32,000 nucleotides of DNA from Candidatus Bathyarchaeota archaeon. Its GTDB lineage: Archaea > Thermoproteota > Bathyarchaeia > 40CM-2-53-6. The DNA is taken from NCBI GenBank assembly GCA_963833125.1, contig CAWHWX010000028.1:97985-129984 (forward strand). Reading direction: 5' to 3'. Position 1 is the first letter of the stretch; each line of letters starts with the position of its first letter. Position numbers and translations under genes: made by a program. Positions 1,906-31,574 of this stretch are shown in pieces. The notes beneath the pieces are model-generated. The model worked only from the letters and a program-made list of their open reading frames with translations. It did no database searches and was not told the origin of the DNA.

Positions 1906-1917
1906 GATAGGGTTAGG

Positions 1918-2601: not shown

Positions 2602-2612
2602 GCAACGGGGAT

Positions 2613-3407
2613 GTGACTGCCTTCTCTATCTTCAGGAGAGTTGAAGACAAACTGCACCCTGTGCCCTTGAAGGAGCGAATCGTACACGCTTCATTCAGGC
2701 TTCACGCACAGCTAGAGAAACTAGACCACATGTACGCTAAACTCCACCAACGAGATACTGACCTTTTTCAACGGTGCGTTGGGGCCCAGGCTTCAAACGA
2801 CCCCGGACACGCGAAAATTTACGCTAACGAGTGTGCGGAAATCCGGAAGATTGCAAAAGTGGTACTCTCAAGCCAACTTGCGCTTGAGAGAGTAATCCTC
2901 CGACTGGAAACGGTTGGGGAATTCAGTGAGGTCATGGTGGAAATAAGTCCACTCATGTCCATTGTGAAGGAAACAAAATCGAAGATCTCTGGCATAGTTC
3001 CGCAGGTTGCGACAGAGCTCGACGAAGTGAACAACCTGCTCGGAGATTTGACGGATGAGGCTGGCGACGTCTCGACTAATAATTTCACGATAGAGACTAA
3101 CGATGACGAAGCGAGGAAGGTCCTTGAGGAAACCGGCCTAATTGCGGAGCAAAAAGTTCGTGACCATTTCCCCGACCTATCAGCAATCGAATCCAGTCCA
3201 CCAGCAAAGATGGATGCCATTCCGGAATTCGCAACAACGATTCCCGATATGGAGGCTGGAATCGAAGATAGAGTCTACGATTATGCACGGAAACACAACG
3301 GTGAGCTGAGCATACATTCTTGTGCACAAGATATTGGTAAATCTCCTGAAGAAGTGAAAACCGCTATTCAAAGGCTGAGGGACACAGGGAAGGTCGCACT
3401 CGAATAG
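2613..3407 (+). CDS. cdvB: CdvB ESCRT-III protein with C-terminal winged-helix domain
   Basis: 264 aa with a GTG start. The Snf7-like core contains KIYANECAEIRKIAKV...LERVILRLETVGEF. A roughly 55-aa C-terminal extension (RVYDYARKHNGELSIHSCAQDIGKSPEEVKTAIQRLRDTGKV) reads as a winged helix. Only this paralogue has it. Confidence 0.85.
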   Translation: MTAFSIFRRVEDKLHPVPLKERIVHASFRLHAQLEKLDHMYAKLHQRDTDLFQRCVGAQASNDPGHAKIYANECAEIRKIAKVVLSSQLALERVILRLETVGEFSEVMVEISPLMSIVKETKSKISGIVPQVATELDEVNNLLGDLTDEAGDVSTNNFTIETNDDEARKVLEETGLIAEQKVRDHFPDLSAIESSPPAKMDAIPEFATTIPDMEAGIEDRVYDYARKHNGELSIHSCAQDIGKSPEEVKTAIQRLRDTGKVALE

Positions 3408-3427
3408 CCGAGCGAAGTGATCGTCTC

Positions 3428-4570
3428 ATGCAGGTCTCGGCATCTCAAGAACTCGAACTAATGGCAGCTAAGTTTGCGAACGAAGCTGTACAGTTTGATA
3501 GGCAAGGCGTGCGGTCTAATGCCATCTCACGTTACGAACGCACTACTGAGATTCTGCTGAAACTATGCAGCCTGTATCCCGAGGCCCCCCAAAATAAGCT
3601 CTACATGCAACAAGTTGAGAACTGCAAGCGTAGAGTGAAGGAGCTCAAAAACGGAGACGTTCCGCTAGACGAGAGAGATAGCTCCCAAGCTAAGATTCAA
3701 CCAAAGCTAGAACAATTGATACTTACTGAGAAGCCGGATGTAAAGTGGAGCGAAATAGCGAACTTACACGACGCTAAGAAAGCAATAGAAGAATCAATAG
3801 TCTTCCCGTTACGACGCGCCGACCTCTTTCCACTCGGTTGGCCAAGAGGAATTCTGTTCTTCGGACCGCCGGGTTGTGGCAAGACACTACTAGCCGCAGC
3901 GATAGCTACCGAGATTGACGCTGTATTCTACAGTGTAGACGCCCCGGCAATAATGTCAAAGTGGTTGGGTGAATCTGAAAAGAACGTGTCGGGTCTTTTC
4001 GCGTCCGCTCATAGAAGCGCCGCTGATGGTCACCCAGTAATCATATTCATTGACGAAGTAGATTCGCTCGTGGGAATCAGAGGCGACGAGGTAGGGGGCG
4101 AAGTTAGAACCCGAAACCAGTTCCTTCAGGAAATGGATAGCATCCTCGACAAAAAGAACCCGAGCCATGTCTACATTATAGGTGCAACAAACAAGCCCTG
4201 GGCTCTAGACGATCCGTTCATTCGCAGATTCCAGAAACGAATCTACGTTCCTTTGCCAGGTCCAGAAGCGAGGCGGGAAATGTTCGACATTTACGCTAAG
4301 AACCTGAAGCTTGCCAGAGATGTTGATCGGGAACTTGTCGTCGAGAAGACGAACGGGTATTCAGGGAGCGATTTGCGTGATATATTCCAGGGAGCTCAGA
4401 CTCGGGTCGTCCGAGAGTTTTTCGAAAATGATGCTCTCGGAACTAAAGGTCAGGCCCGTCACATAACGATGGACGACTTTAGGGAGATCCTAATGAGACG
4501 CAAGCCAAGTGTCTCACCGCAAATGCTCGGTTTGTATGATAAGTGGTTTGAAACTTACAAAGCGCTTTGA
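3428..4570 (+). CDS. cdvC: Vps4/CdvC AAA+ ATPase with N-terminal MIT domain
   Basis: 380 aa. Walker A GPPGCGKT, Walker B IIFIDEVD and second region of homology ATNKPWALDDPFIRRF are present. The N-terminal helical domain is MIT-like and the C-terminus ends in WFETYK, which is Vps4-like. Confidence 0.95.
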   Translation: MQVSASQELELMAAKFANEAVQFDRQGVRSNAISRYERTTEILLKLCSLYPEAPQNKLYMQQVENCKRRVKELKNGDVPLDERDSSQAKIQPKLEQLILTEKPDVKWSEIANLHDAKKAIEESIVFPLRRADLFPLGWPRGILFFGPPGCGKTLLAAAIATEIDAVFYSVDAPAIMSKWLGESEKNVSGLFASAHRSAADGHPVIIFIDEVDSLVGIRGDEVGGEVRTRNQFLQEMDSILDKKNPSHVYIIGATNKPWALDDPFIRRFQKRIYVPLPGPEARREMFDIYAKNLKLARDVDRELVVEKTNGYSGSDLRDIFQGAQTRVVREFFENDALGTKGQARHITMDDFREILMRRKPSVSPQMLGLYDKWFETYKAL

Positions 4571-4584
4571 GGAGAAAATAAAGA

Positions 4585-5082
4585 ATGTTAGATGCAATAG
4601 ACTACAAGATCTTGGCGGAACTGGTCGACAATTCGAAGTCGTCGTTCGCTGAGATTGGCCGCAAGTTGAGCCTTCACCCAAACGTAGTAGCCTACAGAGT
4701 GAACAAGCTCGAAAGAAGTGGCGTAATCAAGGATTACACCGCTGGCTTAGATCTTGAGAAACTAGGAGTCGCCGAACAGATTCTCGTAGGGGCAAGCTTT
4801 CCACGCGAGGCTGGCCGCGACGACATAATCGACAAGATCGCAGCCATCCCGCAAACAGTCAAAGTTGTGAGCTCTCTCGGTGAACCTGAAAGCCTTGTTT
4901 TCCTAGTCGGAAAGAACAAGACCGAGATAGAGAAATTGATGACCAAACTCAGGTCCTTGGACATTAAAATTCAGTACACGGGTTCGATAATACGAACCTT
5001 TGAGGAAGGCAGACTGGGGAACTTCCTCAAAATTCTCGCTCGTGAACACGAGACAGCGGAAATTCAGAACAGAACATTATGA
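4585..5082 (+). CDS. Lrp/AsnC family transcriptional regulator
   Basis: 165 aa. LDAIDYKILAELVDNSKSSFAEIGRKLSLHPNVVAYRVNKLERSGVI is an HTH_AsnC-type motif, followed by a RAM/ACT-like C-domain. It starts 14 nt after the vps4 stop and ends 16 nt before the next cdvB. Confidence 0.9.
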   Translation: MLDAIDYKILAELVDNSKSSFAEIGRKLSLHPNVVAYRVNKLERSGVIKDYTAGLDLEKLGVAEQILVGASFPREAGRDDIIDKIAAIPQTVKVVSSLGEPESLVFLVGKNKTEIEKLMTKLRSLDIKIQYTGSIIRTFEEGRLGNFLKILAREHETAEIQNRTL

Positions 5083-5098
5083 AGGGGTGATAGATAGA

Positions 5099-5704
5099 AT
5101 GTTCAAAGAAAGAACACCATTATCCAAGAAGATTAGGGAGGCTATACGACCCACACCAATGAAGAGACGCATAAGCGAATGCCTCTTCAAACTGAAGATG
5201 CAAGAACGAAAACTTGAGAGAACCTCATACCACATGCAACAACACGACCAAGCACTCTACGGCAAGTGCGTCCTTGCAGTCCAGGGCAAGAACACCGAAC
5301 TCGCATCCATGTACGCCAACGAATGCGCAGAGCTAAGGAAGATGGCTAAGGTAGTATTACACAGCGAACTCGCATTAGAGCAAGTAACTCTTAGACTGGA
5401 AACCGTGAACGAATTCGGCCAGGTCGCATACACCATGCTACCAGTCGTCGGTGTCGTGAGGACTTTGAAAACACAATTGGAAGGAGTACTACCTGAAGTT
5501 TCAATGGAACTATCACAGGTAAACGAAACATTAGAAGGGCTAACAGTGGAAGTCGGCGAGGCAACTGAAAACACCTTCGACATGTCGGCTTCAAGTGGAG
5601 AATCGCAGAAAATACTTCAGGAAGCAAATTTCGTTGCCGAGCAAAAGATGAAGGAGAGATTCCCGGAGCTCCCGCCAATACCTACCAGCGAAGCACGCGT
5701 CTAA
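5099..5704 (+). CDS. cdvB: CdvB-like ESCRT-III (Snf7 family) protein, paralogue 3
   Basis: The track ORF 5000..5704 overlaps lrp, so the ATG at 5099 (MFKERTPLSKK) is the sensible start. The core contains SMYANECAELRKMAKV...LEQVTLRLETVNEFG and the C-terminus is FPELPPIP. Confidence 0.8.
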   Translation: MFKERTPLSKKIREAIRPTPMKRRISECLFKLKMQERKLERTSYHMQQHDQALYGKCVLAVQGKNTELASMYANECAELRKMAKVVLHSELALEQVTLRLETVNEFGQVAYTMLPVVGVVRTLKTQLEGVLPEVSMELSQVNETLEGLTVEVGEATENTFDMSASSGESQKILQEANFVAEQKMKERFPELPPIPTSEARV

Positions 5705-5734
5705 CTTTACTTCAGAAACTCCTCCCTTTCGCCC

Positions 5735-5749
5735 TTTTCTATTATTTTT
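5735..5749. terminator. T-rich tract between convergent genes (possible archaeal oligo-T terminator)
   Basis: The sequence ttttctattattttt lies in the 57-nt gap between the cdvB stop (5704) and the stop of the minus-strand glycosyltransferase (5762). Confidence 0.3.
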
Positions 5750-5761
5750 CGGGTACCGAAC

Positions 5762-7063
5762 TTATGACGGTATTCTCTGAAACGGAAACATGAAGATGAA
5801 AATGTAGACTACCACAGCCAAGTAGAAAATCACTACGATCTTTGGGAGCTTGGTATCGGCTATCATATACGCGATCGCAGCGCAGATGGCCGGCACGGCG
5901 GGGAGGAAGTAGAATAGGTATGTAACTCGTTGTCCAAAGATTACTGCGGGGTAGAAGGGAAGGTAGGTTAAGGAAAACAATGCTATTGCGACAAGGCTAA
6001 GGTCGTCGCGTCTTTGATAGTAGTTGTAGGAGCAATACAGTAGAGCAGGAATCGTCAAGAACGAGATTGCTGGGTTCATGGCGCCGAGGAAGCTCACTGA
6101 AACGTAACTGCTGCTCGTTCCTCCAGAGCTTTGTTGAACGCTTACCCTCAGGTATGGAATGGTAAGTTGATTCAATAGCCACTGCCACGGGCAACTCACG
6201 ATTCCGCTTGGGCAGGATGAGGTGAGTGCTGCTGAGTAATCGAGTATGTATTTGATGTGATCGAGGGGATTGGAGAAACCGACGAAGTATCGGTCCATTA
6301 TTGTCAGTAGAATGATGAAGACGATAGCGTATGTCGCGGTGTATTTCTCAAACCAGGAGAAGAAATCTCCCCACTTCTTTCTCTTCGTCGGATCATTCAC
6401 GAATCTGACCAAGTGGATGCCGATAATCAGCGCAAACCCCGCGAGTCCTGTTTCCTTGCTCAACGCGCTTAGTACCATTCCTACTGCGCTGAGGTACGGG
6501 TGACCCGCAAAATACCAGTAGATGCCCAGCAGCATGAATCCTACGGCAAAGATATCCAAGACCGCGATTCTGCTGTGAACGAAAGCCAAGTTATCGAAGG
6601 AGAAGAGGAATACGGAAATTATTGGGATGGCCTCTTGCTTCGATACCTTCTTCATTAGAAGGTAGAGTGCCAGAATCGATATCGAGCCGAAGATTACGCT
6701 GGGAATCCGCCACCCAAATCCATTGTTGCCTATAATCGACATTGAGAGAGCAATCAACAACTTGGCCAATGGCATATGTTCGTGGTTAGGGTCGAGGCCT
6801 TGTGGAACGTTGACGTAGGGTGGCTGTCCGTTTGCCCCTACACTTTGAGGGATGTGCAAAATGACTCGGGCGACGTTTACGTAGTACCATTCATCGAAGA
6901 CCAAGGATCCTGGTGGTCTATCCAACCATATGACACGTAAGATGATATCGACGATGAAGAGAATTAGGAAGAGACGGTCGTAGAAGTTGCCTAGGCTCAG
7001 GTCTAGGTGGAGATAGCTTCTGATGTCGGGCCAAGTGATTTTTGGAGAGGATTTAATGGACAA
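5762..7063 (-). CDS. GT-C fold membrane glycosyltransferase (PMT/ArnT-like dolichyl-phosphate-sugar transferase)
   Basis: 433 aa with at least 10 predicted hydrophobic helices. An acidic DEWYY motif follows the first helix, as in PMT/GT39-GT83 enzymes. The proposed TTG start lies 4 nt after the argS stop. Confidence 0.6.
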   Translation of the reverse strand: MSIKSSPKITWPDIRSYLHLDLSLGNFYDRLFLILFIVDIILRVIWLDRPPGSLVFDEWYYVNVARVILHIPQSVGANGQPPYVNVPQGLDPNHEHMPLAKLLIALSMSIIGNNGFGWRIPSVIFGSISILALYLLMKKVSKQEAIPIISVFLFSFDNLAFVHSRIAVLDIFAVGFMLLGIYWYFAGHPYLSAVGMVLSALSKETGLAGFALIIGIHLVRFVNDPTKRKKWGDFFSWFEKYTATYAIVFIILLTIMDRYFVGFSNPLDHIKYILDYSAALTSSCPSGIVSCPWQWLLNQLTIPYLRVSVQQSSGGTSSSYVSVSFLGAMNPAISFLTIPALLYCSYNYYQRRDDLSLVAIALFSLTYLPFYPAVIFGQRVTYLFYFLPAVPAICAAIAYMIADTKLPKIVVIFYLAVVVYIFIFMFPFQRIPS

Positions 7064-7067
7064 TCGT

Positions 7068-9011
7068 CTACATCCTTTCGCTTAGCTTGATTCCGAGCAG
7101 CTCCATTGAGTTCCGAAGCACGACTTGGATTGAGGCGACTAGGGCGGCTCTCGCATTCTTAACTTGCTCGTCTGCGTGTATAACATCTACCTTTTCGTAG
7201 TATTCATGAAACTTTTCAGCGACGGCACTGGCGTACGTAGCCAACTCTTCTGGTTTCAACTGGTCTGCTGCTTCACAGAAGGCTTCCGGGAGTTGGGCTA
7301 TCTTGAAAAGTAGAATGTGTTCGAGTGGGTGAGTGAGAAGGGAACAATCGGGATTGTTTGGTGCCTTCCCTAGCTTTCTCAGAATGCTCCCTGCTCTTGT
7401 ATATGCGTAGTTTATGAACGGTGCACTGTTCCGCTCTAGGCTGAGAACCCGATCCCATGTGAAAGTCAGGTTCTTCACGCTATTGACACTGAGCATTGCA
7501 AACTTAATCGCACCGTAAGCTATGTTGCGTATTATGAGCTGAGTCTCCTCAGAACCCATTTCTTGTTTTCTTTCCGCTAGGGTTTGATCAACTCTGACCT
7601 TGGCTTGATCGACCACTTCGTCGAGAGTGATGAAATGTGCTCTTCTCTTGGACATTTTCACACCTGGCAATTCGACGAGGCCGTAAGCAAAGTGAATCAT
7701 GTTGAATGCTGCCTCCTTCTCTCCGAGTGCGTAGAGGGCAAGGCGAATCTGAAGTTGGGGTAGGGTCTGCTCACTCGCAATGACGTTGATGACTCGGTCA
7801 GAGTCCTTGAATTTGACTAGGGAGTAGGCTATGTCGCGTGTGGGGTAGAGGGTTGTTCCGTCGCTTCTTACTAGGGTTAGGTGTGGAACCTCGTAGTTGG
7901 GGGAGAGCCCAAACTGTTCCCTGAGATCATAAGCCTCCACAATCGCGTTTGGATCCAAAACCAGTGAAGCACCCTCTGGCTTGGTGAAGGGCAGTTGTGT
8001 CAGTTTGCTCAATGTCTTCTTCACCAAACCGTCCCAGAGGAGCTGGCTCTCCCAGTCCCATTTGTCGAAGTCTATGTCGATCTCGTGCAGAGACGTCTTG
8101 ATTCCTTCGAGGCATCGTTCGACCATTGTTCGAATAAGGTTGGTAGTTTCTTTGTCATTTTCCTCATACTTGCGGCCCAACTCCTGAATTGCCTTCTCCG
8201 GGTCAGCCTCGACCTGAACCGCCTTCACAACCTTCCCCAACAGTTCTTTGTTTATGGATTCGAGTTCGGCTGCGATGCCGACCCATTCGTCGAGATTAGT
8301 CTGAAGCTTCGCCCTTTCGTCGGTTTGGTCTGGTCTAAGTGTTTTCAGTTTGCGTTTGGTGGTTTCGATTTGGACGGCGCAGTTTGTGCATGCGTAGAGG
8401 CGTCCGAACCAGTGGTCCGCCTTCCCTTGGGGTTCGGGTCGGTTTATGAGGTGGTAGCCGTAGGCTAGAATCGAGACCTGTCTTCCAACATCATCCACAT
8501 AGAACCGTCTGATCACAGAGTGCCCTCTAGCCTTGCATAAGCGTGCCAATGCGTCGCCGAGGATTGAGTTTCGTGCCGTCGCCATCGTTACAGGCCCAGC
8601 AGGGTTTGAGCTTGTGTGTTCAACCGAGACTCTTCGCGGTTCAGCAATTTTCACTAATCCGTAGGTTTCGTTCTCGACGGAGACAGGGTCGAGGATCAAC
8701 GGTCCCGCCTTGGCATAGTTTAGCCGGAAGTTGATGTAACCCGAAGCATCCTCCACCGCTGCGATCAAAGACCTCTCATTCAGTTTGATCGCGCCACGAA
8801 TTTTGCGAGCAACATCTTGAGGTGCAAGCCCCTCCTTACGCGCGATCTCGTGCGCAACCGATGAGGCCAATTCCCCGAACTCCAGCGACCCCGGGACCGT
8901 GAGCCGCCGCTGTCCCCCAGATGCTTCCGGGTAGGTAGTCGACAACGCGGCGTCCAGAGCTTCCATACACTCCGCTCTGAACTGCTGTAAGACGATAGGC
9001 AAAGCGACCAA
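7068..9011 (-). CDS. argS: Arginyl-tRNA synthetase
   Basis: 647 aa. HTSSNPAGPVTMATARN is a HIGH-region variant typical of ArgRS, MSKRR is KMSKS-like, and the C-terminal anticodon-binding region contains PFINYAYTR. The start is TTG at 9011 or an internal ATG. Confidence 0.95.
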   Translation of the reverse strand: MVALPIVLQQFRAECMEALDAALSTTYPEASGGQRRLTVPGSLEFGELASSVAHEIARKEGLAPQDVARKIRGAIKLNERSLIAAVEDASGYINFRLNYAKAGPLILDPVSVENETYGLVKIAEPRRVSVEHTSSNPAGPVTMATARNSILGDALARLCKARGHSVIRRFYVDDVGRQVSILAYGYHLINRPEPQGKADHWFGRLYACTNCAVQIETTKRKLKTLRPDQTDERAKLQTNLDEWVGIAAELESINKELLGKVVKAVQVEADPEKAIQELGRKYEENDKETTNLIRTMVERCLEGIKTSLHEIDIDFDKWDWESQLLWDGLVKKTLSKLTQLPFTKPEGASLVLDPNAIVEAYDLREQFGLSPNYEVPHLTLVRSDGTTLYPTRDIAYSLVKFKDSDRVINVIASEQTLPQLQIRLALYALGEKEAAFNMIHFAYGLVELPGVKMSKRRAHFITLDEVVDQAKVRVDQTLAERKQEMGSEETQLIIRNIAYGAIKFAMLSVNSVKNLTFTWDRVLSLERNSAPFINYAYTRAGSILRKLGKAPNNPDCSLLTHPLEHILLFKIAQLPEAFCEAADQLKPEELATYASAVAEKFHEYYEKVDVIHADEQVKNARAALVASIQVVLRNSMELLGIKLSERM

Positions 9012-19988: not shown

Positions 19989-20306
19989 TCATTGGGAGCC
20001 TCCGACTTTGGGAACCTCGAGTTGCCTGAAACCACTTTGCAGAACCAAGTATTGCATTGGGCCGATCTGAATCACATCTCCGACAGATAAATTCCGAGCA
20101 AGGTCCTTCTTCTTGAAAGGAATCCCGAAAGGAGTGGGCTCCAGGCGGAACATGGAGGCGATCATGTCAGGGGTTACGAGGTTCTTGAATTCTGCCTCCC
20201 AACCCAAATCGTAGAGGTTCTCAAGCATCCACTTTTGGATCGTTGAAGTTGCTTCTATCTCCGAAGGATCCGGTTTCCCCTTGAGTAGGAAAACTTTGAC
20301 CTTCAT
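19989..20306 (-). CDS. Hypothetical protein
   Basis: The ATG at 20306 (MKVKVFLLKG...) lies within track ORF 19989..20405. I recognise no family, and the upstream part of the ORF is low-complexity Ser-rich. Confidence 0.4.
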   Translation of the reverse strand: MKVKVFLLKGKPDPSEIEATSTIQKWMLENLYDLGWEAEFKNLVTPDMIASMFRLEPTPFGIPFKKKDLARNLSVGDVIQIGPMQYLVLQSGFRQLEVPKVGGSQ

Positions 20307-20731
20307 CCGCCGACTCCCCTTGACTCGTGGAATTGATTTTCTTTTCTGGTTCCATAAGTCGCTTGCGTTGGCTGAAGAACTCGATGGCGTGTCTGCCCAT
20401 CGCACTGCCCCCGCTTAGTCTCCGACTTCCTTTAACGGAAAATTTGGAGCGGGTCAGTTTGTTGCGAACGCTCCGCACTACTACACGCCTGAAGGCGCTG
20501 GGTACCTTAGCTAATGCGAATGTACGATCCTAGCGGTACATTCACGTTTTTGGCGTTGCTTGACCATGTGTCTGGTCGCCGGCGACCAACTGTATGGTCA
20601 GAAACCAACTCTTGCGACTTTCTTAGCGGTTTTCAGGTTGCTTGGCCACTCGCTGAAGGGTTTGGATCAAGGCGTTCTCTGCCCTCAAATATGTGATCAG
20701 ACCGAACCACCAAAGAATATAACAACACTAG

Positions 20732-20783
20732 TTGGAGCCGGGGATGGGAATCATATTACTAGTTCGGTTCCGTAACAATATAA
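20732..20783. repeat. Left copy of a roughly 52-bp direct repeat bracketing the 9.7-kb island
   Basis: ttggag-ccgg-gatgggaatcatattactagttcggttcc-gta-acaatataa. The 29-nt core (20743-20771) is identical to 30457-30485, and the flanking positions are mostly shared. Confidence 0.85.
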
Positions 20784-20987
20784 GGCAATACGATTATTGA
20801 ATTTCCAATGGCAAAGGAGATCAGCCTGAACTTTGGAGAAAGTTTCTCGTCCCCAAAGCTCTAGTCTCGCCTGGTCTAGTACATAGCATTTAGGCAGCCA
20901 GTAGTCTTCCAAGATACGTACCGATGCCATCTGCCAATTGCAGTGATTTGATCTCAGTTCCATCCGCTGTACCTTTTTGTGTGTGTG

Positions 20988-22038
20988 TCAATCCGAAGTT
21001 TCAATCCACTTCTTCTGTTGCGCAGCATCGTACGCTGTATCCATGAGGCGGTTCACGACGTAGCCGTCTCGGAAGCTTTCTCGCAGTGTTTGGCCTTTAG
21101 CAATGCATTCGACAAAATGTTGCAATTCGTACATGTAGCCTCCGGTTTCAAACTCACGCCAAGTTGGAAACATCCAACCCCTACCCACATCAGCCTTCTC
21201 GACGATGTAACCAGAACGACCCTCTGGTGCAGCCGTGAAGAGCCTAATGCCAGTTTCACGGGTGGCGTCAATGAAGATTGCACCGTCACTCCCGTAAACT
21301 TCCACTCGAACATCAAATCCACCTTTTGCCGACCAACTGTTTTCACACTGTCCAAGGGACCCGTCTTCGAATTTCAAGAGCACAAGGCTATTGTCCTCGC
21401 CCTTTATTTTATGAACGAGAGTTGCTGTCCAAGCTGCAACCTCCGTCGGTTTCTTCTTGTTGACGAGATATCGGACGGCTTCTATAGTGTGGCAACCCAT
21501 GTCCGATAGCACTCCGCCACCTGCGAGATTGGGATCCCAGAACCAATTGCTGTGTGGTCCAGAATGTGCTTCCCTTGCTCTAATCCATGTGAGCTTACCG
21601 ATGGCTCCGCTGCTGATGAATTCGAAAGCGACGAGTTATCTGTGGAATGAAAACCTGATTCTCCGCGTAGCAATTGAGAACTCCATGTTTTTCCACAGCG
21701 TCAAGCGCCTTTTTCGCTTCGGCCCCATTGCGGGCGAGAGGCTTCTCGCATATAATGTGCTTATGATTTTCAGCTGCCGTTATGATCGTTTGCAGATGGA
21801 AATTGTTCGGTATTCCGATGTCTACAACATCGACATCCGGATCTCTGCACATCTTCTCTATGGCATCATCACCGTGGTAGACTTTACTTATGTTCCATCG
21901 TTTCGCGAACTCCACGGTGTCTTCTATCCCAGCAACAGCAACCACGTTTGCAAGTTTGATTTCCGAGTAGGCAGGCATGTGAAAAGTGTTCTGTACGAAA
22001 CCTGTTCCCACAATTCCAACATTCACCTTCTGTGACAT
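20988..22038 (-). pseudogene. Gfo/Idh/MocA family oxidoreductase, one frameshift
   Basis: The N-part (in 21595..22074) reads MSQKVNVGIVGTGFV...ICEKPLA. The C-part frame, read back from 20988..21512, reaches LVAFEFISSGAIGKLTWIRAREAHSGPHSNWFWDPNLAGGGVLSDMGCH. The frames meet near 21636-21640. Confidence 0.8.
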
Positions 22039-22148
22039 AGACTTGACTGACCTCTTGTTATTCAGAGATGGCAAGTCCGTTTAAAAGATTCGGCTCCGTA
22101 AGGATGAAAACTAGCCAAGCACGATCTGTCAAATCCTCGGGTGATGCT

Positions 22149-23092
22149 CTAACTCCACCAGTCCATCACGAATACATCGGATCTGTTGTACGCCGGTTCA
22201 TTTGGTTTGTGCATCGTAACGTAAAGAGTTGATGTGAAGAAGCCTGTCTCTATCATGGTCTTATAGGCTTCGTGGCGTTCCATATTCATTCCAGCTGTAA
22301 TATTCACCAATCCTTTACTCACAGCGAAGGCCTCGCAGGTTTTCAGGAGTCTTTCGAAATCTGTGTGTTGATTAGATGATGGCTTAACTGCCCCAAATTT
22401 CACATAACAGTTTCCACTCCCTGCTTCTGTATACGCGGTCCGCAGTGACAGATAGCAAAACCAGCAAGTTCGGGGCCGTCCCAAAGCAGAATTGTATCGC
22501 CTAAAGCCTGATGGTAAACGGATCGTATCTCCGTTGAAAGATCCAAACCGCCGTAAATCGAATTGCTCACACGAAACGTTTGCTCAATACATTCTCGCTT
22601 TTCTTCTTTCCCAAGAGCCGAGAAAGTTGAGATCGCGAGTAAGTCTTCGCTTGGCTTAACGGGTTTTGTCATAATTGCAGTTAGGCATCTTGGCCAGAAA
22701 CCATACTTCTGATAAAGATGAATGTGCTTCGGGCTCTCAGGTTGAGTGACAAGACCAGCTTGCGATATGTGCCACTGTTCAAACAGATCCTCCGCTCTTT
22801 CAACCAGACGGGAAGCAACACCTTTACCCCATAGGTGGGGGTGAACAGCCATTCTACCGACAAAACTCACACTACCCCATCTCGTCACAACAACCGTTCC
22901 ACGAACGGTTCCTTCGGCTTCCGTGACGAGGATAACGCTAGTGCTACCTCTCCATCGGGAAGCTATCATGTCTCTGTCGCCAAAGGTTTCAAGAGGGTTA
23001 GTGAGCCCATATTGAGTCCCGAAGGTTAGTCGAAGTAGGCGATCCGCTTCGTCCAGCTCTTCTTCTCTGACTGGTCGAACGAGAATATCCAT
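22149..23092 (-). pseudogene. Two-domain GNAT acetyltransferase-like protein, one frameshift
   Basis: The N-part ORF 22400..23092 contains RMAVHPHLWGKGVASRLVE (acetyl-CoA site-like). The C-part ORF 22149..22484 contains TAYTEAGSGNCYVKFGAV.... The frames switch near 22425-22440. Confidence 0.7.
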
Positions 23093-23241
23093 GACACTCT
23101 TTCTATCTGAAGTTCATAAAATCCTTAACGCAAGAGGGCGGAAGTGTTGTGGTGTGAATGCACTGGGACGATAACCTGAGCCCCCCTCTTTGCCTAGTTA
23201 ATCTTCAGGTACTGTTCTGTCTTAGAAGTAGGCGTCCATTG

Positions 23242-24272
23242 TCACCGCTCGCCCCGTTTGATAGAATCCAGCGCTCCGAACATCATTGCCAAGCTTCTAA
23301 TGTTGTCTTGGGCACTGGTCTCCGGTTCCTTATCTTCGACAATGGATCGTGCAAACTCATGTAATGAGTAAGATCTGTCTTCTAGTGGCATGGGTATCAG
23401 TTCTGGTTCGAGGGTGGAAGCTCTCTCGGTCATTCCCCGCGTGTATACGCTCTTGAATGTGCGGGTCGGTTCTTGGAGTGTGACGTGAAGTCCGGTTTCG
23501 TTCCAGCATATTTCTCCTTCCGAGCCTTCGATGCGCCAATCACCATTCCACGTTGTTTCCCATCCTCGTGAAACCCAGCTGCCAAAGTAATTCACTCGAA
23601 TATCGTTTTTCATTTCAACCGAGACTTCAACTGTAGGGTTTCCATCAAACCAACTCCATTTCGGCCTCCAGCTCTTCGCGTAGATGCTAACGGGATCTAC
23701 TCCGAGCAGATACCTCATGAGATCGAAATGGTGAATCACCATCTCAGTGATAATTGGTTCGGGTAGTTTGAGGTAGTATATTCCCGTGAAAGGTGGTGCC
23801 TTGTGGAAGTTGACCGTAGCGTACCCCGCTTCACCCACAAACTCATCCTGCACAAGTTTTCTTATTGTTTGCTGGCGAACTCCTATACCTATAATTCTGG
23901 CTTACCATTAACTTCAACTTCGTCTTCTCTGCTGCCCGTCTCATTTCCCTCGCAGTTTTCCATCGTATCCGCCAATGGTTTTTCAATTAGGACATGCATG
24001 CCAGCATTCAAAGCAGCAATTGCGACTTCCGAATGGTAGTTTGCAGGTACAACTCCTAAGACCGCATCGGCGTCAACCTCTTTCAGTACACGACCAAGAT
24101 CCGTGTAACACTTTGAACTCGGAATTCCATTCTTAGCGGCGGTTCTCTGCAAATTGGCCTTGGATACATCAACGTAGGCAACAACTTCGAAATCTTCGGA
24201 TTGTCGAGCTATTGATGCCCAACTCTCACCCCAGCCACCAACTCCAACCTGAATAAGATTCAGCTTAGTCAT
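23242..24272 (-). pseudogene. Gfo/Idh/MocA family oxidoreductase, two frameshifts
   Basis: The N-part reads MTKLNLIQVGVGGWG...LIEKPLADTMENC. A second frame gives REMRRAAEKTKLKLMVSQNYRYRS. A third frame gives VRQQTIRKLVQDEFVGEAGYATVNF... (23242..23853). Confidence 0.8.
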
Positions 24273-24347
24273 GGAACAACTCGCATCCGAACGAATGGCG
24301 ATTCGTTCGTGACCTCAAATCTCGTGAGGAGTTTTGCTCAAAAGTTT

Positions 24348-25161
24348 TCAGTTAAGTAATTTCAGTAGGTACTCTTTGGTCCGCACTGCCGAGGTATCGC
24401 CTTCGCCTTGTTCTAGTTCGGCTGAAAGGTATCCTGAGTAATTGATCTCTCGCAAAGCCTTGACGATTGACTTGAAATCTATGTTCCCCTCTCCCGGTAC
24501 CAAATGTGCATCTCTAGTTGAGTCATTGTCGTGTATGTGTACGTGTATTATCTTGTCCCTCATCTTCAGCACCGATTTCGGTATGTCTTCCTTCACTACG
24601 TGGAGATGCCCTATGTCCAGTAGGAGTTGTAGACCGGGACTGTTGACCTCTCGCAGCATCTTGTCAGCGAGGTCTGAGGTGGAGATCAAGTTGCCTGGTT
24701 CTGGTTCCAGACCGATTATTCTCTTGTGGCTCTTCGCATAGTCCCACGCATTCTTCCAGTTCAGCCTTGAGCCAGTTCCATTGATCCCTTTCGTTTGTGC
24801 CTTCAATCATTGGGGTTCCTGTTACAATTTCTACCAGAGGTGCTTCGAGGTCTACGGCTAGGTCGACACATTCTTCCACGTGCCGAACTGTCGCTGATCT
24901 CACTCTCGGATTTGGATGGGTGAAGTGCCACTGGGGTGTGCCATTGAATGAGGTAATCGCAGCGACTTTCAATCCAAGCGACTTGGCCTCTGATAGTATC
25001 TTCTTTTTTTGCGAATTGTCATAATCTTCTGGCAACATGTGCGGACGGTTGGCAACTATTTCGATTGCGTCATAACCCAATTTCGCAGTTCTGTCTATGG
25101 CGATTTCAATTGGGTAACGAATGTAAGCGAACGAACTTAAGCAGAGTTTCAAGTCCCTCAT
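24348..25161 (-). pseudogene. Xylose-isomerase-like TIM-barrel protein (sugar phosphate isomerase/epimerase family), one frameshift
   Basis: The N-part ORF is 24664..25161 (LGYDAIEIVANRPH...) and the C-part ORF is 24348..24806 (IIGLEPEPGN...LLLDIGHLHV...HVHIHDN). The ORFs overlap in different frames and the switch is near 24745-24775. Confidence 0.8.
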
Positions 25162-25169
25162 CCTGGCTG

Positions 25170-26202
25170 CTACGGAAGAAGTACGGTCTTAAGGGTTTTC
25201 TTCGAATCGAATAGTTGAAACGCTTCAGACGCTTTAGCTAGCGGAAATCGATGTGTGACGGTTTCAGCCAACCGAATTTTCTTTCGGTTAACTAATCGAA
25301 TCATCTCATCGAAATCGGCAATGTTGAAGTACCACGAACCTCTGATGGTCAAGTCCTTCGTGATGACTTGTTCTACTGGCTTAATTTCTGTTCTGTGCCC
25401 CCATCCGACGAACGCTACTTTTCCATGCGGGGCAACACATTCTAACGCTTCACTTTCCGCAATCGCACTACCCGAACAGTCGATTGACTTACTGACAGCC
25501 TCGTCACCAAGCATTGAGTTGATCGACTCAACTACATTGACATCTCCCAAGTTCTGCAATGTATAGTCACATCCTAGCTTCTTGACGTGTTGTAGTCGCT
25601 CTTTCACTGGATCTATGCCGATTACCGCGGCGCCGAGGGATTTACAAACCATTGCCTCACAAACTCCAATTGGACCCATGCCGAAAATCGCAACATTGTC
25701 GAAAGGACCGACTTCCAGTTTTTTTGCAGCGGAGTAGGTTGTTCCCAGGAGATCGGTAGTAAGGCTCCCGTCAATGAAATCCATCCAAGCAGGTATCTTC
25801 AAGCAGTTTCTCGCCGGGGTTAACAGAAGCTCAGCATCGGCGCCATTCATGTCAAACCCAAAACATTTCGCCTCCTTACAGAACATCCATTCACCAGCAC
25901 GACATCCGTTGCAATGATTGCAACTTACGAATGTGTAAACTGCCACTCGATCGCCTACGATTACCGAATCAACGCCTGGCCCCACTTTCTCAACTAACCC
26001 GCATCCTTGGTGGCCCGGTATAACAGAACCATGGCCCTTTGTTCCAACCCCAGCATGCTGTCTCCCGTGGTACGGGTCTAGGTCCGCGGCGCATAGTGCC
26101 GCTGCTTTTATTCTAACCACAATCCTCCCCATAAGAGGGAGTAGGATCAGGAAAATCGATATAACGGACTTGTTCCGGGCCCGTGAATGAAATGGCCTTC
26201 GT
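25170..26202 (-). pseudogene. Zn-dependent medium-chain dehydrogenase (sorbitol/threonine dehydrogenase-like), frameshift and lost start
   Basis: The called ORF (25170..26132) starts inside the domain at IVVRIKAAALCAADL. The missing N-terminus KAISFTGPEQVRYIDFPDPTPSYGE is read in another frame upstream. The switch is at the G-run near 26123-26130, and ACG sits where the ATG before KAISF is expected (26200-26202). GHQGCG, the CNHCNGCRAGEWMFC structural-Zn lobe and GMGPIG are all present. Confidence 0.8.
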
Positions 26203-26232
26203 GTAGTTTTCCTCTTCGTTGAATTCGGCAGC

Positions 26233-27824
26233 CTATTCTGGTGGGATTGACATATACAGCAAGGAGAGGTCGATTCCCTCTCTGGCCCTATAGTACTTTG
26301 CCACCCCGTAAATAACTAGGGGTATGGCGAAACTGGCAAAGATAATCGCATACGATCCCAGGCTAGTTGGTCCGATAGCTGGAGTTACTGATGCGGCGTA
26401 GATTAGGAAGACTAGAAATGCAGCCGATAAGGCGGATAGGATTGAAACTACGGGGACCTTTGCGATGTTTATCTTCCAAATGCTATTTTCATACAAATCC
26501 TTCCTTCGATATGGGTAGACAATTCCAGCGATCGCAACTAGCAGTAGGTCTGCGGCAAACCAAATCGTGCCGTTGAGGAAGAATGAGAGATATGGAGTAT
26601 AGGCTGCAAAATAAAGCGCGATAAGAGACCCGATTCCTGCCACTATCGCCACGTAAATCGGTGAGGCTGTACGGGCTGATACTCTTGCAAATATTTCGGG
26701 CATAACTCTGTCAAACGCCCAAGCGAACATTGACCGGCTAGCTGTGAGAAGAAATGCGAGCATATTGAGTACCATAGCTAATGCCATATAGACTGAGATA
26801 ATCGATAACAAGACCACATTATTAGTGAGCAAACCAGCGTAGAAGTTAATCCAAGGAGGAGCGCTCAGCGGATAATGGGACGTTCAAAGAACAAATAGCC
26901 TGAAGCGCTGAGAAAGTCATAACCCGCAGTTTTCATCAACAGTTCCCCTCCGATCCAGTCCATTATGCCGCAGAACAGGAATCCTCCCATCAATGCCAGT
27001 GGGATTGTCTTCCGCGCGCCGATCTCACCTCGCCAGCCACATACACCGGATATGTTGGCCCCTGTCCTAAGAATACGAAGGCCGGCGCAGACGCTAACAT
27101 GGTCGCGAATAATGCGGGGCGTACCGATGTCCAACCATTTTGCGAGGCGGTTTGAATAATCCCAGAATATGTGGCAACTCCGTCTCGGTTTCTGGTTAAA
27201 GTTGGCGATGAAAGTCGCATTACTATTTAGCGCAAGCAGACCGAACACGACGACTACTCCTATCATACTTACAAAGAACAGAACCCGGTTCACTTGCGAA
27301 ATGATCTTTATGCGTAGAGCCAACACAGCGGTCATGAAGAGAACCACGACAACACCTATCGCAAATGCAGTATTCACATCCGTAAATTGAACTGCAAGGC
27401 TAGAAATGGCCGGATTTTGCAATGAAAATCCCATTGCTGCAAATCCTGGAGCAAGCATGAGAGTTGAAAGATAATAGGAGTCTAAGCCTATCGCAAAAAA
27501 GCACTCAGCGTTATTGAGAAGTTCATTATGAAACCATAACCTGGACTTATGGTCCTGCCCAGGAAGACATAGTCCCCCGCCCAGATCGAGGCATAGCCGT
27601 CGCGAAGTAAACATATACCGCCGCAATTAGCAGTCCAGGTATTAATGCTGCAAGGAATGTAAAAGCTGGATCTGCACGGGGTATAGATACCCAAAGAATC
27701 CATACCCTGCGGCACCACCAAATGGAATATCCGAAATCCCCACAGCGATTATGAAAGCGTCTAGCGCTGTCAGATCCCTTACAAGACCTGTTGCTTCCCG
27801 GACAAAGACCTTGGGCTTAGACAT
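26233..27824 (-). pseudogene. APC-superfamily amino acid/polyamine permease, at least five frameshifts
   Basis: The pieces 27642..27824, 27488..27721, 26865..27626 and 26233..26832 are in different frames. Joining frames by hand restores ...ADPAFTFLAALIPGLLIAAVYVYFATAMPRSG / GDYVFLGRTISPGYGFIMNFSITLSAF / FAIGLDSYYL.... One switch is at the run gggcggggg near 27568. Confidence 0.75.
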
Positions 27825-28082
27825 TCTTTCACAGTGAAAGAATTTCCAGCAACCTGTATTTATGTTATTGCCTTCTTCATCAAGTCATCTTCTCTCCCTT
27901 GATTATAGTTGTGTTTTTCAGTCGTGCGACCTGAAATTGTTCCTAATTTGGAAATTTGAAAAATAATACTAATCTTGACATATGATGCGTCGTGTGACCG
28001 TATGTTGTCGAGGAAGATTTGAAAAATAAATCTTCTTCACGCCATACAATCGAAAGTCCTTATTATGTAGTAACTCCCGTGT

Positions 28083-29184
28083 GTGATTGCAGTACGACCG
28101 AAATTGAGCAAGATCCGGGTCGGTCTTATCGGGCTGGGTATGATTTCCAAGAACCATTTAAGTGCTTACCAGAAGATAGGTGAAATCGCTGAGATTGTTG
28201 CCGTTGCCGACGTAAGAAAAGAATTGGTGCAGCGAACTGCAAAAGAAGTAGCTGCAGAGAGTTACTATGATTATCGGGAATTGCTTCAAGACGACAAGGT
28301 TGACGCTGTCGATATTATGCTCCCACACAACCTGCATCTTCAGGCAGCAGTCGACGCTGCGGCGGCAGGGAAGGACATATTTATCGAGAAACCACTTGCC
28401 AGAACTGCAGCCGAAGCAACCAAAATCGTCGAAGCAACGGACCGTGCTGGCGTAAGACTGATGATCGGAAACAATCTGCTCTTTCATCCGGGTGTCCAAA
28501 AAGCACGTGAGCTAATCGAAAAGAAATATCTGGGCAAAATTGTCCTCGAAAGCATGGTCATTAGGGTGGTTCCTTTACAATGTTGGTATATCCAAGTATC
28601 GAAAGTCTGTCGAGCAAACGGGGGGTGGTAGCCTAATTGACACGGGAACTCATTTCATCTATTTGCTGCGAAACCTTGTGGGTGACGTGGAATCTGTCGC
28701 TTGCTGCACAGGCAACCTGCTAAATGATCTTCACAAGAGTGTCGACCACGTTGACTTCGTACCTGAAGGAGAAGATACAGCTGTTCTTATTTTCAGATTT
28801 AGGAACTCGGCGCTTGGAGAACTCACAGTGAGTTATTCCACTGCTGGTTAGAAGGATGGGAAATGTTTTGGCCTTATGGGTGGGATCAGCGACTTCAATT
28901 ATACGGATCGGAAGATACCCTCTCACTAGATCTTCCAAACCTCACTCTCTCTGTCTCCTCTGAGAAGGACCTACAAGGTGATGTTAAGGGGAGGATTTCA
29001 ATTCCCGTGGCGGGTGACTATGGTGAAACCTTCGATGGTGAGATCAAACATTTCGTCGAAGGAAGTACTTCATAAAACGGATTTTATGAAAGGCGTTCGA
29101 GGGCAGGACGCAGTCGAAGATCTAAGAGTGATCGAAGCAGCCTACAAGTCTTCCAAACTTGGAAGCATGACACAAATCAACTGA
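28083..29184 (+). pseudogene. Gfo/Idh/MocA family oxidoreductase, at least three frameshifts
   Basis: The N-part is 28083..28631 (IRVGLIGLGMISKNH...FIEKPLA). The gene then continues through 28540..28851 (GGGSLIDTGTHFIYLLR), 28863..29075 and 28978..29184 (AVEDLRVIEAAYKSS), each in a shifted frame. Confidence 0.8.
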
Positions 29185-29289
29185 ACTCAATTCATATTGA
29201 TTAAGAGCATAATGTGAAACGTGCATCTTGAAGATGTCGTTGAAGCTTAAATTAAAGCAAGGGTCTCCGATCTCGAGGAAGCTTCGGAC

Positions 29290-30197
29290 TTGGGTCAATT
29301 CTTCGTGGGTCTAAACAACACATGGGCTGTGAAGAGATTCGCTGAACCTGAGGTTTGGGCGGAAATTGCAGCGACAAAAATGGACGTCGATCTCATACAG
29401 TTTTCATTCGATCTACTCGACCCAATGATTGGCGAAGACTGTCCTAAACGAAATGATACCAAGAACGCTAGATTCTTGCACGAAGTACGGAATAAAACTG
29501 CAAAGTTGTTTTACAGGCGTTATCGGATACACCAACAATCTTCTGTTACATCCCTCCTCGAAAATGAGAAAACACGCATTTGACTGGTACTCAAGCGCCG
29601 TCGGCATCAGCGGGAGGCTCCATGTGGAAACTGTAGGAGGCCATATGGGAGCGCTAACATTGAAGGATTTCAACGATACACGGCGGCGGGAGTCTCTGCT
29701 TTCGGAGCAAGTGGAGCATGTCACATCTTTGTCTCGATTATGTAAGGAGGCAGGATTGGAGACGCTATTATGGGAACACATGCCTGTATCCAGAGAACCA
29801 CCATCGACAATTGATGAGGCACGAAACCTACTACAACGAGTCAACAGAAACTCATCTGTCCCTGTCAAGTTATGTATCGATGTGGGTCATGCGTGCAATC
29901 CGAATGTGAAGGACCCTCGTGACAGAGACCCGTACACGTGGCTAAGCGAATTAGGTTCAGAATCTCCGTGCGTTCATCTTCAACAGACAGACGGAAAGGG
30001 AGATAGACACTGGCCTTTCACGGATGAATTCAACAAGCTAGGAGTAATTGACGGAAAGAGGATCATTTCATCGCTTGAGGAGAGGCGCTGGCAGGACGTA
30101 TCTTTATCTCGAAGCAATTCCAGCATTTGAACAAGACGATAATCAAGTAATCGAAGATATGACTAAGAGCATACAGTACTGGAAAGAATACGTGTAA
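29290..30197 (+). pseudogene. Xylose-isomerase-like TIM-barrel protein, at least two frameshifts
   Basis: The gene runs from 29290..29583 to 29429..30130 (ETLLWEHMP...KLCIDVGHA...VHLQQTDG). A third frame then gives GAGRTYLYLEAIPAFEQDDNQVIEDMTKSIQYWKEYV, with the stop at 30195-30197. Confidence 0.75.
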
Positions 30198-30445
30198 TTT
30201 GTATGCAATCGCACCACTACTCTCAAATTTGCTGCCCCAGTCTTCAAGTCAAGCTTTGGGTTACACTTGATATGTAGTTACGAGGCGTTTTTGCATAAAC
30301 CCCGGAAGTGCCCATTTCGACGGCACTCTGAACGCAGTTATTGTTTCTCTTGACGGAAAACTGCGGAACTATATGTTCGTGAACGGATAGAAACGTCGTG
30401 AAATTTTTAGATATTTGTCAGGTCGCAACCTGGTGTAGATAATAT

Positions 30446-30497
30446 TTGGAGTCCGAGATGGGAATCATATTACTAGTTCGGTTCCTTGACAATATAA
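30446..30497. repeat. Right copy of the roughly 52-bp direct repeat bracketing the 9.7-kb island
   Basis: ttggag-tccga-gatgggaatcatattactagttcggttcc-ttg-acaatataa. The 29-nt core (30457-30485) is identical to 20743-20771. Confidence 0.85.
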
Positions 30498-30944
30498 ATT
30501 GTCGAAGTAACACGGTTCTGTTAACAGAACCAGTAATACCCCAGGATTGGTTGATGCTTGCGTAGCTGAGGTCTACGTGCGCCGAGAGAGAACCCGGATG
30601 TGCAACTTCTTATTCGGATTGCTTTTTCGATGTCTCATTTAGTCCGGGATAGGTGACCCACAAGCCGCGAATAGAATTGTGAAAGAAGATCAATTGATTT
30701 AACCTCTACAAACTCGTCGGGACCATGCAGATTACCTCCTCGTTCGGAATGCAATCATCTTTTCGCCGCTAATGCTCTCGACAATCAATCCTGTTTCTGC
30801 ATCTTTGTCAAGCGTCTTTAGAAGTACAGGTTTAGCGTCTGGCAATTGATAACGTAAACTACTTTCCGTAAGCACAATTATGCTTTTTGCCTAAGCAAAA
30901 GCTCGATAAACAGGAGTTCACTTACCACGCTAGCGGTTTGAGAC

Positions 30945-31319: not shown

Positions 31320-31574
31320 GATTTAGTGCTTTTATCCTCATGATTCTTGGAGGCATTTTGAATCAAAGTCAACCACTTGTCTTTTCATTCCACTTTGATT
31401 TTCGCAACTTCGGCGGGTGACTTACCTTTCACGCTCGATGTGGTCGAATGTTAATTGCGTTGTCCGCGCAAGCATACAATCGTCGTTCTCAAAAGCAAAG
31501 ATTAGAGGGAACAGAGTTCAAATTGCGGATTTCGTAACCGGCTGATCGGACTAGGTTTAGGACTGAGTAACTTT

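Follow-up and report, generated by a model that had tools for sequence, protein, structure and literature searches.

In a 32,000-nt stretch of DNA of a Candidatus Bathyarchaeota archaeon (contig CAWHWX010000028.1; this whole stretch is called the window in the following), two direct copies of a 55-nt repeat bracket exactly a 9.7-kb block of decayed sugar-metabolism genes. In a close relative the similarity to the window breaks off at this repeat, and the DNA to the right of the block is rearranged. The explanation that we favour, at a probability of roughly 45%, is that the two copies are the attachment (att)-type junctions of an old insertion, which occurred either through a recombinase acting in trans or through a single crossover within the 29-nt core of the repeat, and of which the block is a now immobile and decaying remnant. 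We read the copies in this way because of their direct orientation, their perfect centre and diverged arms, the exact bracketing and the break in synteny at the repeat in the relative (the contig L008, described below).

20729-20783, + strand: left repeat copy, perfect core at 20743-20771
30443-30497, + strand: right repeat copy, perfect core at 30457-30485
20784-30442, no strand: block between the repeats, 9,659 bp, two divergent operons of disrupted sugar/inositol-type catabolic genes, no recombinase

The repeat finder aligned the two copies in direct orientation and without gaps, 49 of the 55 positions (89%) being identical. The initial annotation had described repeats with a perfect 29-nt core around a 9.7-kb block, which was confirmed, the repeat being 55 nt long and reaching 3 nt further on the left. 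The single indel that had been proposed between the copies is not needed, as a gapless alignment with six substitutions accounts for them, and the stretches GAGCCGGGG and GAGTCCGAG differ by three substitutions with no gap required. The core GATGGGAATCATATTACTAGTTCGGTTCC is exact in both copies, and these two are its only matches on both strands of the window, at up to three as well as at up to eight mismatches; at up to three mismatches no match is expected (0 in 100 dinucleotide-preserving shuffles). All six substitutions are found in the outer 26 positions while the central 29 nt are spared, an arrangement that has a chance of C(26,6)/C(55,6) = 0.008 under uniform decay (our own arithmetic), suggesting that either the edges were never identical or the centre was protected. 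A perfect core with diverged arms is how att sites, or a crossover between homologous sites that have diverged, usually look; it suits an att-type or single-crossover junction, and suits a target-site duplication that has decayed, or any duplication decaying uniformly, less well. The four segments adjoining the repeats, inside as well as outside, show no mutual similarity in the alignment or in self-BLAST, in agreement with what had been noted before.

The core is not a widespread sequence in the collections that were scanned. An exact 22-mer of it gave no match in 185,579 GTDB species-representative genomes, 241 million JGI metagenome records and IMG/VR, and a 21-nt variant with one N, which permits the substitution found in L008, gave none in JGI metagenome and IMG/VR, the two collections against which it was run. 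BLAST searches of 20406-20800 against plasmid and phage collections likewise returned nothing. The earlier statement that the target is not a tRNA holds, since there is no tRNA or Rfam match at the repeats: ARAGORN and Rfam find a tRNA-Arg at 12498 only, and permissive Rfam scans of both junctions gave nothing, or noise at E>6. The repeat has no sequence similarity to insertion sequence (IS) elements of the IS6 family or to the att site at the tRNA-Arg.

Three further readings of the repeat were tried and rejected. A structured RNA was considered because folding of the + strand predicts a hairpin, GGAGCCGGG...UUCGGUUCC (z -1.3 and -2.6), yet the alignment of the three known copies holds no compensatory pair. 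A promoter was considered because the repeat has a TATA-like AATATAA/TTATATT at its 3' end; downstream of the copies, however, no start codon or gene is shared, and the copies are turned oppositely with respect to the closest conserved genes. Integron cassettes are single-gene units that are bounded by attC core sites of the form RYYYAAC and GTTRRRY, with IntI encoded nearby; here GTTGGAG and CCGTAAC are off the core consensus, the block holds nine genes in two orientations, and the only integrase of the window belongs to the element at the tRNA-Arg. A perfect palindrome lies close to the right copy, and the left copy has no counterpart of it.

30514-30531, no strand: perfect palindrome GGTTCTGTTAACAGAACC, 18 nt, 17 nt to the right of the right copy (read from the sequence and by self-BLAST)

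Eight or nine disrupted genes in two orientations fill the block from 20988 to 30130, as judged from open reading frames (ORFs) and Pfam matches.

20988-22074, - strand: Gfo/Idh/MocA oxidoreductase pseudogene 1, N-terminal domain in ORF 21595-22074 and C-terminal ORF 20988-21512 in a different frame
22149-23092, - strand: probable GNAT acetyltransferase, probably frameshifted, two overlapping ORFs
23242-24272, - strand: Gfo/Idh/MocA pseudogene 2, N- and C-terminal domains in separate ORFs and different frames
24348-25161, - strand: xylose-isomerase-like TIM barrel pseudogene 1, AP_endonuc_2 2-117 and 107-236 in overlapping ORFs of different frames
25170-26199, - strand: Zn-dependent alcohol/polyol dehydrogenase with an N-terminal frameshift (tblastn with the homologue P0119)
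26233-27824, - strand: amino-acid/polyamine-type permease pseudogene in at least three pieces, AA_permease_2 81-236 and 271-424 in separate ORFs
28083-29184, + strand: Gfo/Idh/MocA pseudogene 3 with at least three frame changes, tblastn frames 3, 1 and 3 and a further ORF in frame 1
29290-30130, + strand: xylose-isomerase-like TIM barrel pseudogene 2, two overlapping ORFs in different frames, AP_endonuc_2 match

Together with tblastn these assignments bear out the description of the interior as a block of broken sugar-metabolism genes; for the GNAT gene the disruption is probable rather than proven, as its 111-aa C-terminal ORF gave no match in the Pfam search. In detail, tblastn with homologues placed frame changes near 21630 (in Gfo/Idh/MocA pseudogene 1, from frame -3 to frame -1 at 21629-21632), 26130, 28548 and 28850. 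In the Zn-dependent alcohol dehydrogenase (ADH), residues 2-26 of P0119 are matched in frame -3 and residues 22-342 in frame -1, so that the open part measures 320 aa as compared with about 342 aa in homologues and the first approximately 22 residues are lost by the frameshift. The permease pseudogene has an additional N-terminal ORF, 27642-27824, that is set off by an in-frame stop. At least 11 disruptions were counted in the block, mostly frameshifts but also in-frame stops. The non-genic stretches amount to two end spacers of 204 nt and 312 nt and a divergent promoter region of 258 nt.

Searches with NCBIfam pointed to similarity with IolG, with IolO/IolE and with IolM-like proteins, all at scores far under the equivalog cut-offs, and for this reason the function of the block can, going by its sequence, be named no further than sugar/inositol-type catabolism. 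The block resembles bacterial iol-type clusters, as represented by the locus L007, whose bacterial-type sugar cluster (LacI/ABC/Gfo/TIM/ADH) matches the ADH of the island, in having Gfo/Idh/MocA proteins, TIM barrels and a Zn-ADH side by side; it differs from them in that identities reach only 25–45%, the permease is not of the ABC type and the genes of the block are broken. Genes like those of the block are rare. The best matches of the island ADH besides itself are at 66% and 58% on short contigs, followed by 45% in that cluster, and in the related-locus search against genome contigs it found one bacterial match only, at 23% identity. The genes of the flanks, unlike those of the block, have dozens of homologues at 70–93% identity, which are from Bathyarchaeia where they are named. 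The block has a history different from that of its flanks.

No integrase or transposase domain was found between the repeats in the ORFs and by Pfam, as had been stated before, and the repeat finder detected no terminal inverted repeats at the ends of the block. Since there is no recombinase and no space for one, the block is not self-mobile. A missing integrase would be accounted for if the block were an integrative mobile element exploiting Xer recombination (IMEX), inserted by the host Xer proteins at a chromosomal dif site, and the integrase-less block, its flanking direct repeats and a perfect 29-nt core close to the length of dif would all agree with this. A dif site consists of two inverted arms of about 11 bp around a 6-bp spacer (PMC2958812). 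When inverted 11-bp arms were looked for at spacers of 4-10, no such arms around a 6-bp spacer were present in the repeat, the best pair matching at 7 of 11 positions, which is the mode of 2000 random 66-nt windows. The skew switches in the window are moreover only those that follow gene orientation, and we regard an IMEX-like element as the least probable of the explanations considered.

The closest relative that was retrieved is L008, the 7.1-kb ENA contig ERZ25039509 contig_68738, which was reached through the small gene of the left flank (P0196). Its positions 1644-7128 correspond to 20787-15323 of the window in BLAST, with 91.6% DNA identity over 5.5 kb, and the gene order in this left flank is as in the window (EamA, LeuB, ferritin, small genes).

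19989-20405, - strand: left-flank small gene of 105-138 aa without Pfam family (ORFs, Pfam), 93% amino-acid identical to P0196 of L008
20406-20728, no strand: unusually conserved, apparently non-coding spacer on the left side of the repeat, holding a palindrome of 40 nt (20561-20600, repeat finder)

L008 carries one copy of the repeat, at 1648-1702 on the reverse strand, with one substitution in the core. This copy is orthologous to the left copy over the full 55 nt and the following 4 nt (GGCA), and the similarity between L008 and the window stops 4 nt past the inner edge of the repeat, so that a variable segment does have its breakpoint at the repeat. The other 1.6 kb of L008 encode the B12-binding subunit and the N-terminus of a methylmalonyl-CoA mutase and have no match in the window. 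Two further loci with the left-flank gene were available. In L011, from a slightly more distant relative, neither the repeat nor the block is present and an unrelated dehydrogenase gene lies 175 nt from the small gene; in L009 a V4R gene stands beside the small gene. The block is thus absent beside the left-flank gene in L008, L011 and L009, and it is equally absent beside the right-flank gene in L001-L005 (see below). Among the related loci that were fetched, the core was found at up to nine mismatches in L008 alone.

The left-flank gene has a homologue (83.5% nucleotide and about 83% amino-acid identity) at 9853-10332 of the loci L012/L013, on metagenome contigs of 162 kb and 51.5 kb. Its neighbours there are a family-B DNA polymerase, two UvrD-like helicases, a PD-(D/E)XK nuclease, a DUF87 ATPase and ThiF, a mobile-element-like neighbourhood that was found on 15 contigs. 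The left-flank protein itself has no match among viral contigs.

The comparison with L008 bears on the question of whether the bracketing, the frameshifts or both are products of the assembly, either because contigs were joined via a short repeat or because the consensus of a strain-variable segment was polished badly. The source contig, 159.5 kb long, is metagenome-derived, in L008 the core gene LeuB is in two pieces through indel errors or frameshifts, and the disruptions of the island are mostly frameshifts, at least one of them at a C4/G4 run. All of the at least 11 disruptions are nevertheless located inside the block, while the large flanking genes that were checked are open at the length expected from their domains (ArgRS 647, Vps4 380, LeuB 341 and EamA 308 aa). 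Homopolymers are as dense inside the block as outside it, in-frame stops are present, the left flank and the repeat are borne out by the independent contig L008 as far as the breakpoint, and neither long-read nor large-k assembly is misled by a repeat as short as 29-55 nt. Taken together, an artefact appears very unlikely.

With respect to L008, we also observed that its LeuB (Iso_dh) is split into two overlapping ORFs, 5126-5957, the LeuB of the window being intact, and that the two sequences differ by several 1-nt indels in non-coding DNA. The L008 contig probably holds indel errors, and pseudogenes in assemblies of this sort should be called with caution.

The repeat and the spacer to its left are unusually similar in the window and in L008. 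Between 20406-20787 and L008 1644-2027 there are 8 substitutions in 382 nt (2.1%), as compared with 8.4% over the whole 5.5-kb alignment and 10-15% in the EamA gene. The conservation of the repeat and of the 320 nt to its left hints at a function of this DNA of its own; the low divergence may be due to constraint or to recent exchange. The 391 nt of spacer and repeat fold no better than shuffled sequences on either strand and have no Rfam match.

The repeat could also be the 3' end of a small unannotated gene, be it an ORF ending in ...DGNHITSSVP* or a non-coding RNA, which served as the target of integration, the second copy then being a gene end that was displaced or brought in by the element; this would be a special case of the att model, with a defined target. 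An ORF does end inside the repeat in all three copies, the three substitutions in the last 36 nt are synonymous or exchange one stop for another (ATT to ATC, CCG to CCT, TAA to TGA), and the upstream 320 nt are highly conserved. Three substitutions are however too few for statistics, and a 1-nt indel shifts the reading frame between the window and L008, on which gene calling did not pick up the ORF. A search of 1.84 billion representatives gave three multi-stretch repetitive matches to the 71-aa ORF and no credible homologue, and there is no PHROG match, nor is there an Rfam match or a significant fold that would speak for an RNA. A gene end as the target is therefore considered improbable.

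On the right side the situation is less orderly. This flank was compared with L001-L005, loci that carry relatives of its conserved 124-aa gene, and with L010, another such relative.

30742-30861, - strand: inverted and truncated 5' fragment of a V4R-domain gene, 120 nt, 81.7% nucleotide identity to L001 10785-10666
30945-31319, + strand: conserved 124-aa gene without Pfam family, Bathyarchaeia-wide (homologue search)
approximately 31343-31450, - strand: C-terminal remnant of an IS240/IS6-family transposase, matching DDE_Tnp_IS240 3' ends and a 77-aa fragment ORF (L001/L002/L004)

The 124-aa protein has 117 homologues, the best full-length ones at 80–86% identity; those that are named are from Bathyarchaeia, with one labelled Candidatus Acidoferrum. 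The V4R fragment comprises the first 35 codons and corresponds to residues 1-35 of the V4R protein of L001 at 77% identity (tblastn). In L001 the V4R gene follows the 124-aa gene and is read in the same direction, whereas in the window it is upstream, inverted and truncated. Full copies of IS240/IS6 elements adjoin the same 124-aa gene in relatives. L001-L005, which are about 75–77% identical to the window in nucleotides across the 124-aa gene, have a KaiC-like gene upstream and neither repeat nor block, but are too distant to serve as a test of an empty site; L010, at 87% to the 124-aa gene, offers 107 nt of upstream sequence only, which is too short for such a test. The right flank is rearranged, and the V4R fragment and the transposase remnant point to an IS-mediated rearrangement to the right of the island. 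The claim of the initial annotation that the genes outside the repeats are intact is accordingly true of the left flank and fails for the right one, with its V4R fragment and IS240/IS6 remnant.

IS6-family remnants 850 nt to the right of the block, and full copies near the right-flank gene in relatives, raise the question of whether the block was captured by an IS6/IS26-like process, so that the repeats would be a duplication made by transposition or remnants of flanking IS copies. A length of 55 nt far exceeds known target duplications, and the mismatches are unevenly spread, leaving the repeat imperfect at its edges. The block has neither terminal inverted repeats at its ends nor a transposase in its interior, and the repeat is dissimilar to the IS copies of L001/L002/L004. 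We therefore give such a capture hardly any credence.

The right flank also bears on the main rival of the att-type reading, according to which the 55-mer is a lineage-specific, dispersed short repeat, for instance a protein-binding or structural one, recombination between its copies shuffles whatever lies next to them, and the block merely happens to lie in between. The three copies are indeed followed by three different things, namely the island, a 244-nt segment leading to the V4R fragment, and the methylmalonyl-CoA mutase genes of L008. In addition, the divergence of 2.1% in repeat and left spacer is far below that of nearby genes, suggesting a function, the composition of the island is host-like, and no recombinase is present in the block. 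On the other hand, the 32 kb of the window hold just two copies and the 7-kb contig L008 a single one, a further 150 kb or so of related loci have none at up to nine core mismatches, and the exact 22-mer of the core has zero matches in GTDB genomes, JGI metagenome and viral contigs. Its predicted hairpin is without compensatory support and the z-scores of the fold are weak, and the copies point in opposite directions relative to the conserved genes nearest to them, which speaks against a directional role in regulation. Although it is the most serious competitor, we consider this explanation unlikely.

If the two copies are att-type junctions, the events could have been as follows. The incoming DNA would have been a circle with a version of the site related to the chromosomal one without being identical to it, and the two would have recombined either through a site-specific recombinase whose gene lies elsewhere or in a single crossover of the Campbell type. 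An exchange within the 29 nt that are identical in both copies would have left the outer arms slightly different, and would have set a 9.66-kb sugar/inositol-type cluster beside a lineage-specific recombination site in a Bathyarchaeia chromosome. The function of the block would have been lost later, its genes becoming frameshifted or stopped, and the DNA to its right would have been rearranged further by IS6-family activity. The recombination mechanism, the direction of the event (insertion here versus loss elsewhere) and the order of events are what we infer in this scheme.

Several observations weigh against this reading. No empty site was found among the retrieved relatives: the junction that had been predicted, 20731 joined to 30498 through one repeat, was not seen in them, and L008 continues beyond its repeat into methylmalonyl-CoA mutase genes that are unrelated to the right flank of the window. 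A simple empty site may be missing owing to later IS-driven rearrangement. The breakpoint between L008 and the window lies just outside the repeat and not inside the core, as the 55 nt and GGCA are common to both. The three copies each run into a different sequence, which fits a lineage-specific repeat at rearrangement points equally well. The repeat is without a dyad-symmetric core, its best 11-bp arms (7/11) having the modal value of random windows. The metabolic pseudogenes fill the block completely, so that besides the lack of an integrase or transposase there is no room even for a remnant of one. The count of two copies is a count for the window. Finally, the proposed comparison of composition between block and flanks gave no foreign signal: tetranucleotide usage of the block correlates with that of core regions at r 0.69–0.77, core regions correlate with each other at 0.63–0.76, and the tRNA-Arg element reaches 0.17–0.48. 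The idea of a foreign composition is ruled out, GC content and tetranucleotide usage of the block being host-like.

Our confidence in an att-type insertion stays below one half because there is no trace of a recombinase, because the breakpoint is 4 nt outside the edge of the repeat and because three different sequences follow the three copies. Of the insertion proposed in the initial annotation, a real and non-random direct pair, the exact bracketing and the breakpoint in L008 stand, and an empty site and an attributable recombinase are what is missing.

The window contains a second and more conventional integrated element, which serves as an internal positive control.

9201-12575, no strand: integrated element at tRNA-Arg(CCG), with a 34-nt perfect direct repeat (9201-9234 = 12498-12531)

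Its repeat is the 5' part of the tRNA-Arg(CCG) gene, 12498-12575, and a tyrosine integrase (11591-12451, - strand) abuts the tRNA. Such a placement in the 5' half of a tRNA gene has been reported for pTN3-like integrases (PMC8371274). Like the 9.7-kb block, this element is a short block between a pair of direct repeats; the match of the repeat to a tRNA, the adjacent tyrosine integrase and the deviant tetranucleotides of the element are all lacking in the 9.7-kb block.

Archaeal att sites share 40-50 bp and are sometimes intergenic, and the loss of the integrase or mutation of att are described routes to permanent capture, leading to 'sequestered' elements (PMC8371274). With archaeal att-bounded elements the block has in common direct repeats of about 40-55 bp, an exact core and an accessory block that is missing in relatives. 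In elements of this kind, which tyrosine recombinases integrate, the integrase gene usually lies inside the element beside one att site. The block differs from them in that there is no remnant of an integrase and there are no replication or mobility genes, the cargo being purely metabolic, in its host-like composition, in that no empty site was recovered and in its non-tRNA target. With integrase-less islands and IMEX that use recombinases in trans it shares the direct repeats and the lack of a recombinase of its own; unlike these, the block is degraded, probably immobile and without a dif-type architecture, and no helper recombinase was identified.

A bolder suggestion would be that the 55-mer and the conserved 320-nt spacer form a dedicated recombination hotspot at which a recombinase acting in trans swaps multi-gene metabolic modules. 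The sugar cluster here and the methylmalonyl-CoA mutase genes in the relative would then represent an exchange of large cassettes without a local integrase, and the hotspot would be functionally akin to integrons and IMEX with a different architecture of the site. We consider this quite improbable.

The block belongs to an ordinary kind of genomic-island remnant, one that microbial genomes commonly contain, and lies in a stretch of a Bathyarchaeia chromosome that is prone to rearrangement. Current understanding is unchanged by it. If the att-type reading is correct, the block documents the gain and subsequent loss of a carbohydrate/inositol-type catabolic module in an uncultivated Bathyarchaeia lineage, and the repeat is a candidate non-tRNA recombination site for this lineage. 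In practical terms, the 29-nt core provides a searchable marker for strain differences and for reuse of the site.

Other features were noted in the window and its relatives. An inverted repeat of 127 nt with 89% complementarity has one arm inside the tRNA-Arg element (10414-10540) and the other beyond the tRNA (13400-13526), the outer arm extending over the 3' end of ORF 13413-13886. The inverted repeat has partial matches at L003 11470-11553, beside IS fragments, and may be the remnant of an IS or of a miniature inverted-repeat transposable element. Within the neighbouring ORF 12773-13381, which has no Pfam family, four tandem copies of a 24-30-nt repeat (79–94% identical, 12980-13072) encode a repetitive protein segment.

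A Cdv-type cell-division cluster is located at 1918-5704 and comprises a CdvA-like gene, a 264-aa ORF without Pfam family, a Vps4-like AAA ATPase with an MIT domain and a weak Snf7/ESCRT-III-like ORF. An AsnC-type helix-turn-helix regulator lies between the Vps4 and the Snf7-like gene, and Alba and ArgRS are encoded nearby. Among the relatives, the RtcB RNA ligase carries an intein in L001 (5099-8080, 993 aa, Intein_splicing) and none in L004 (6642-8123, 493 aa).

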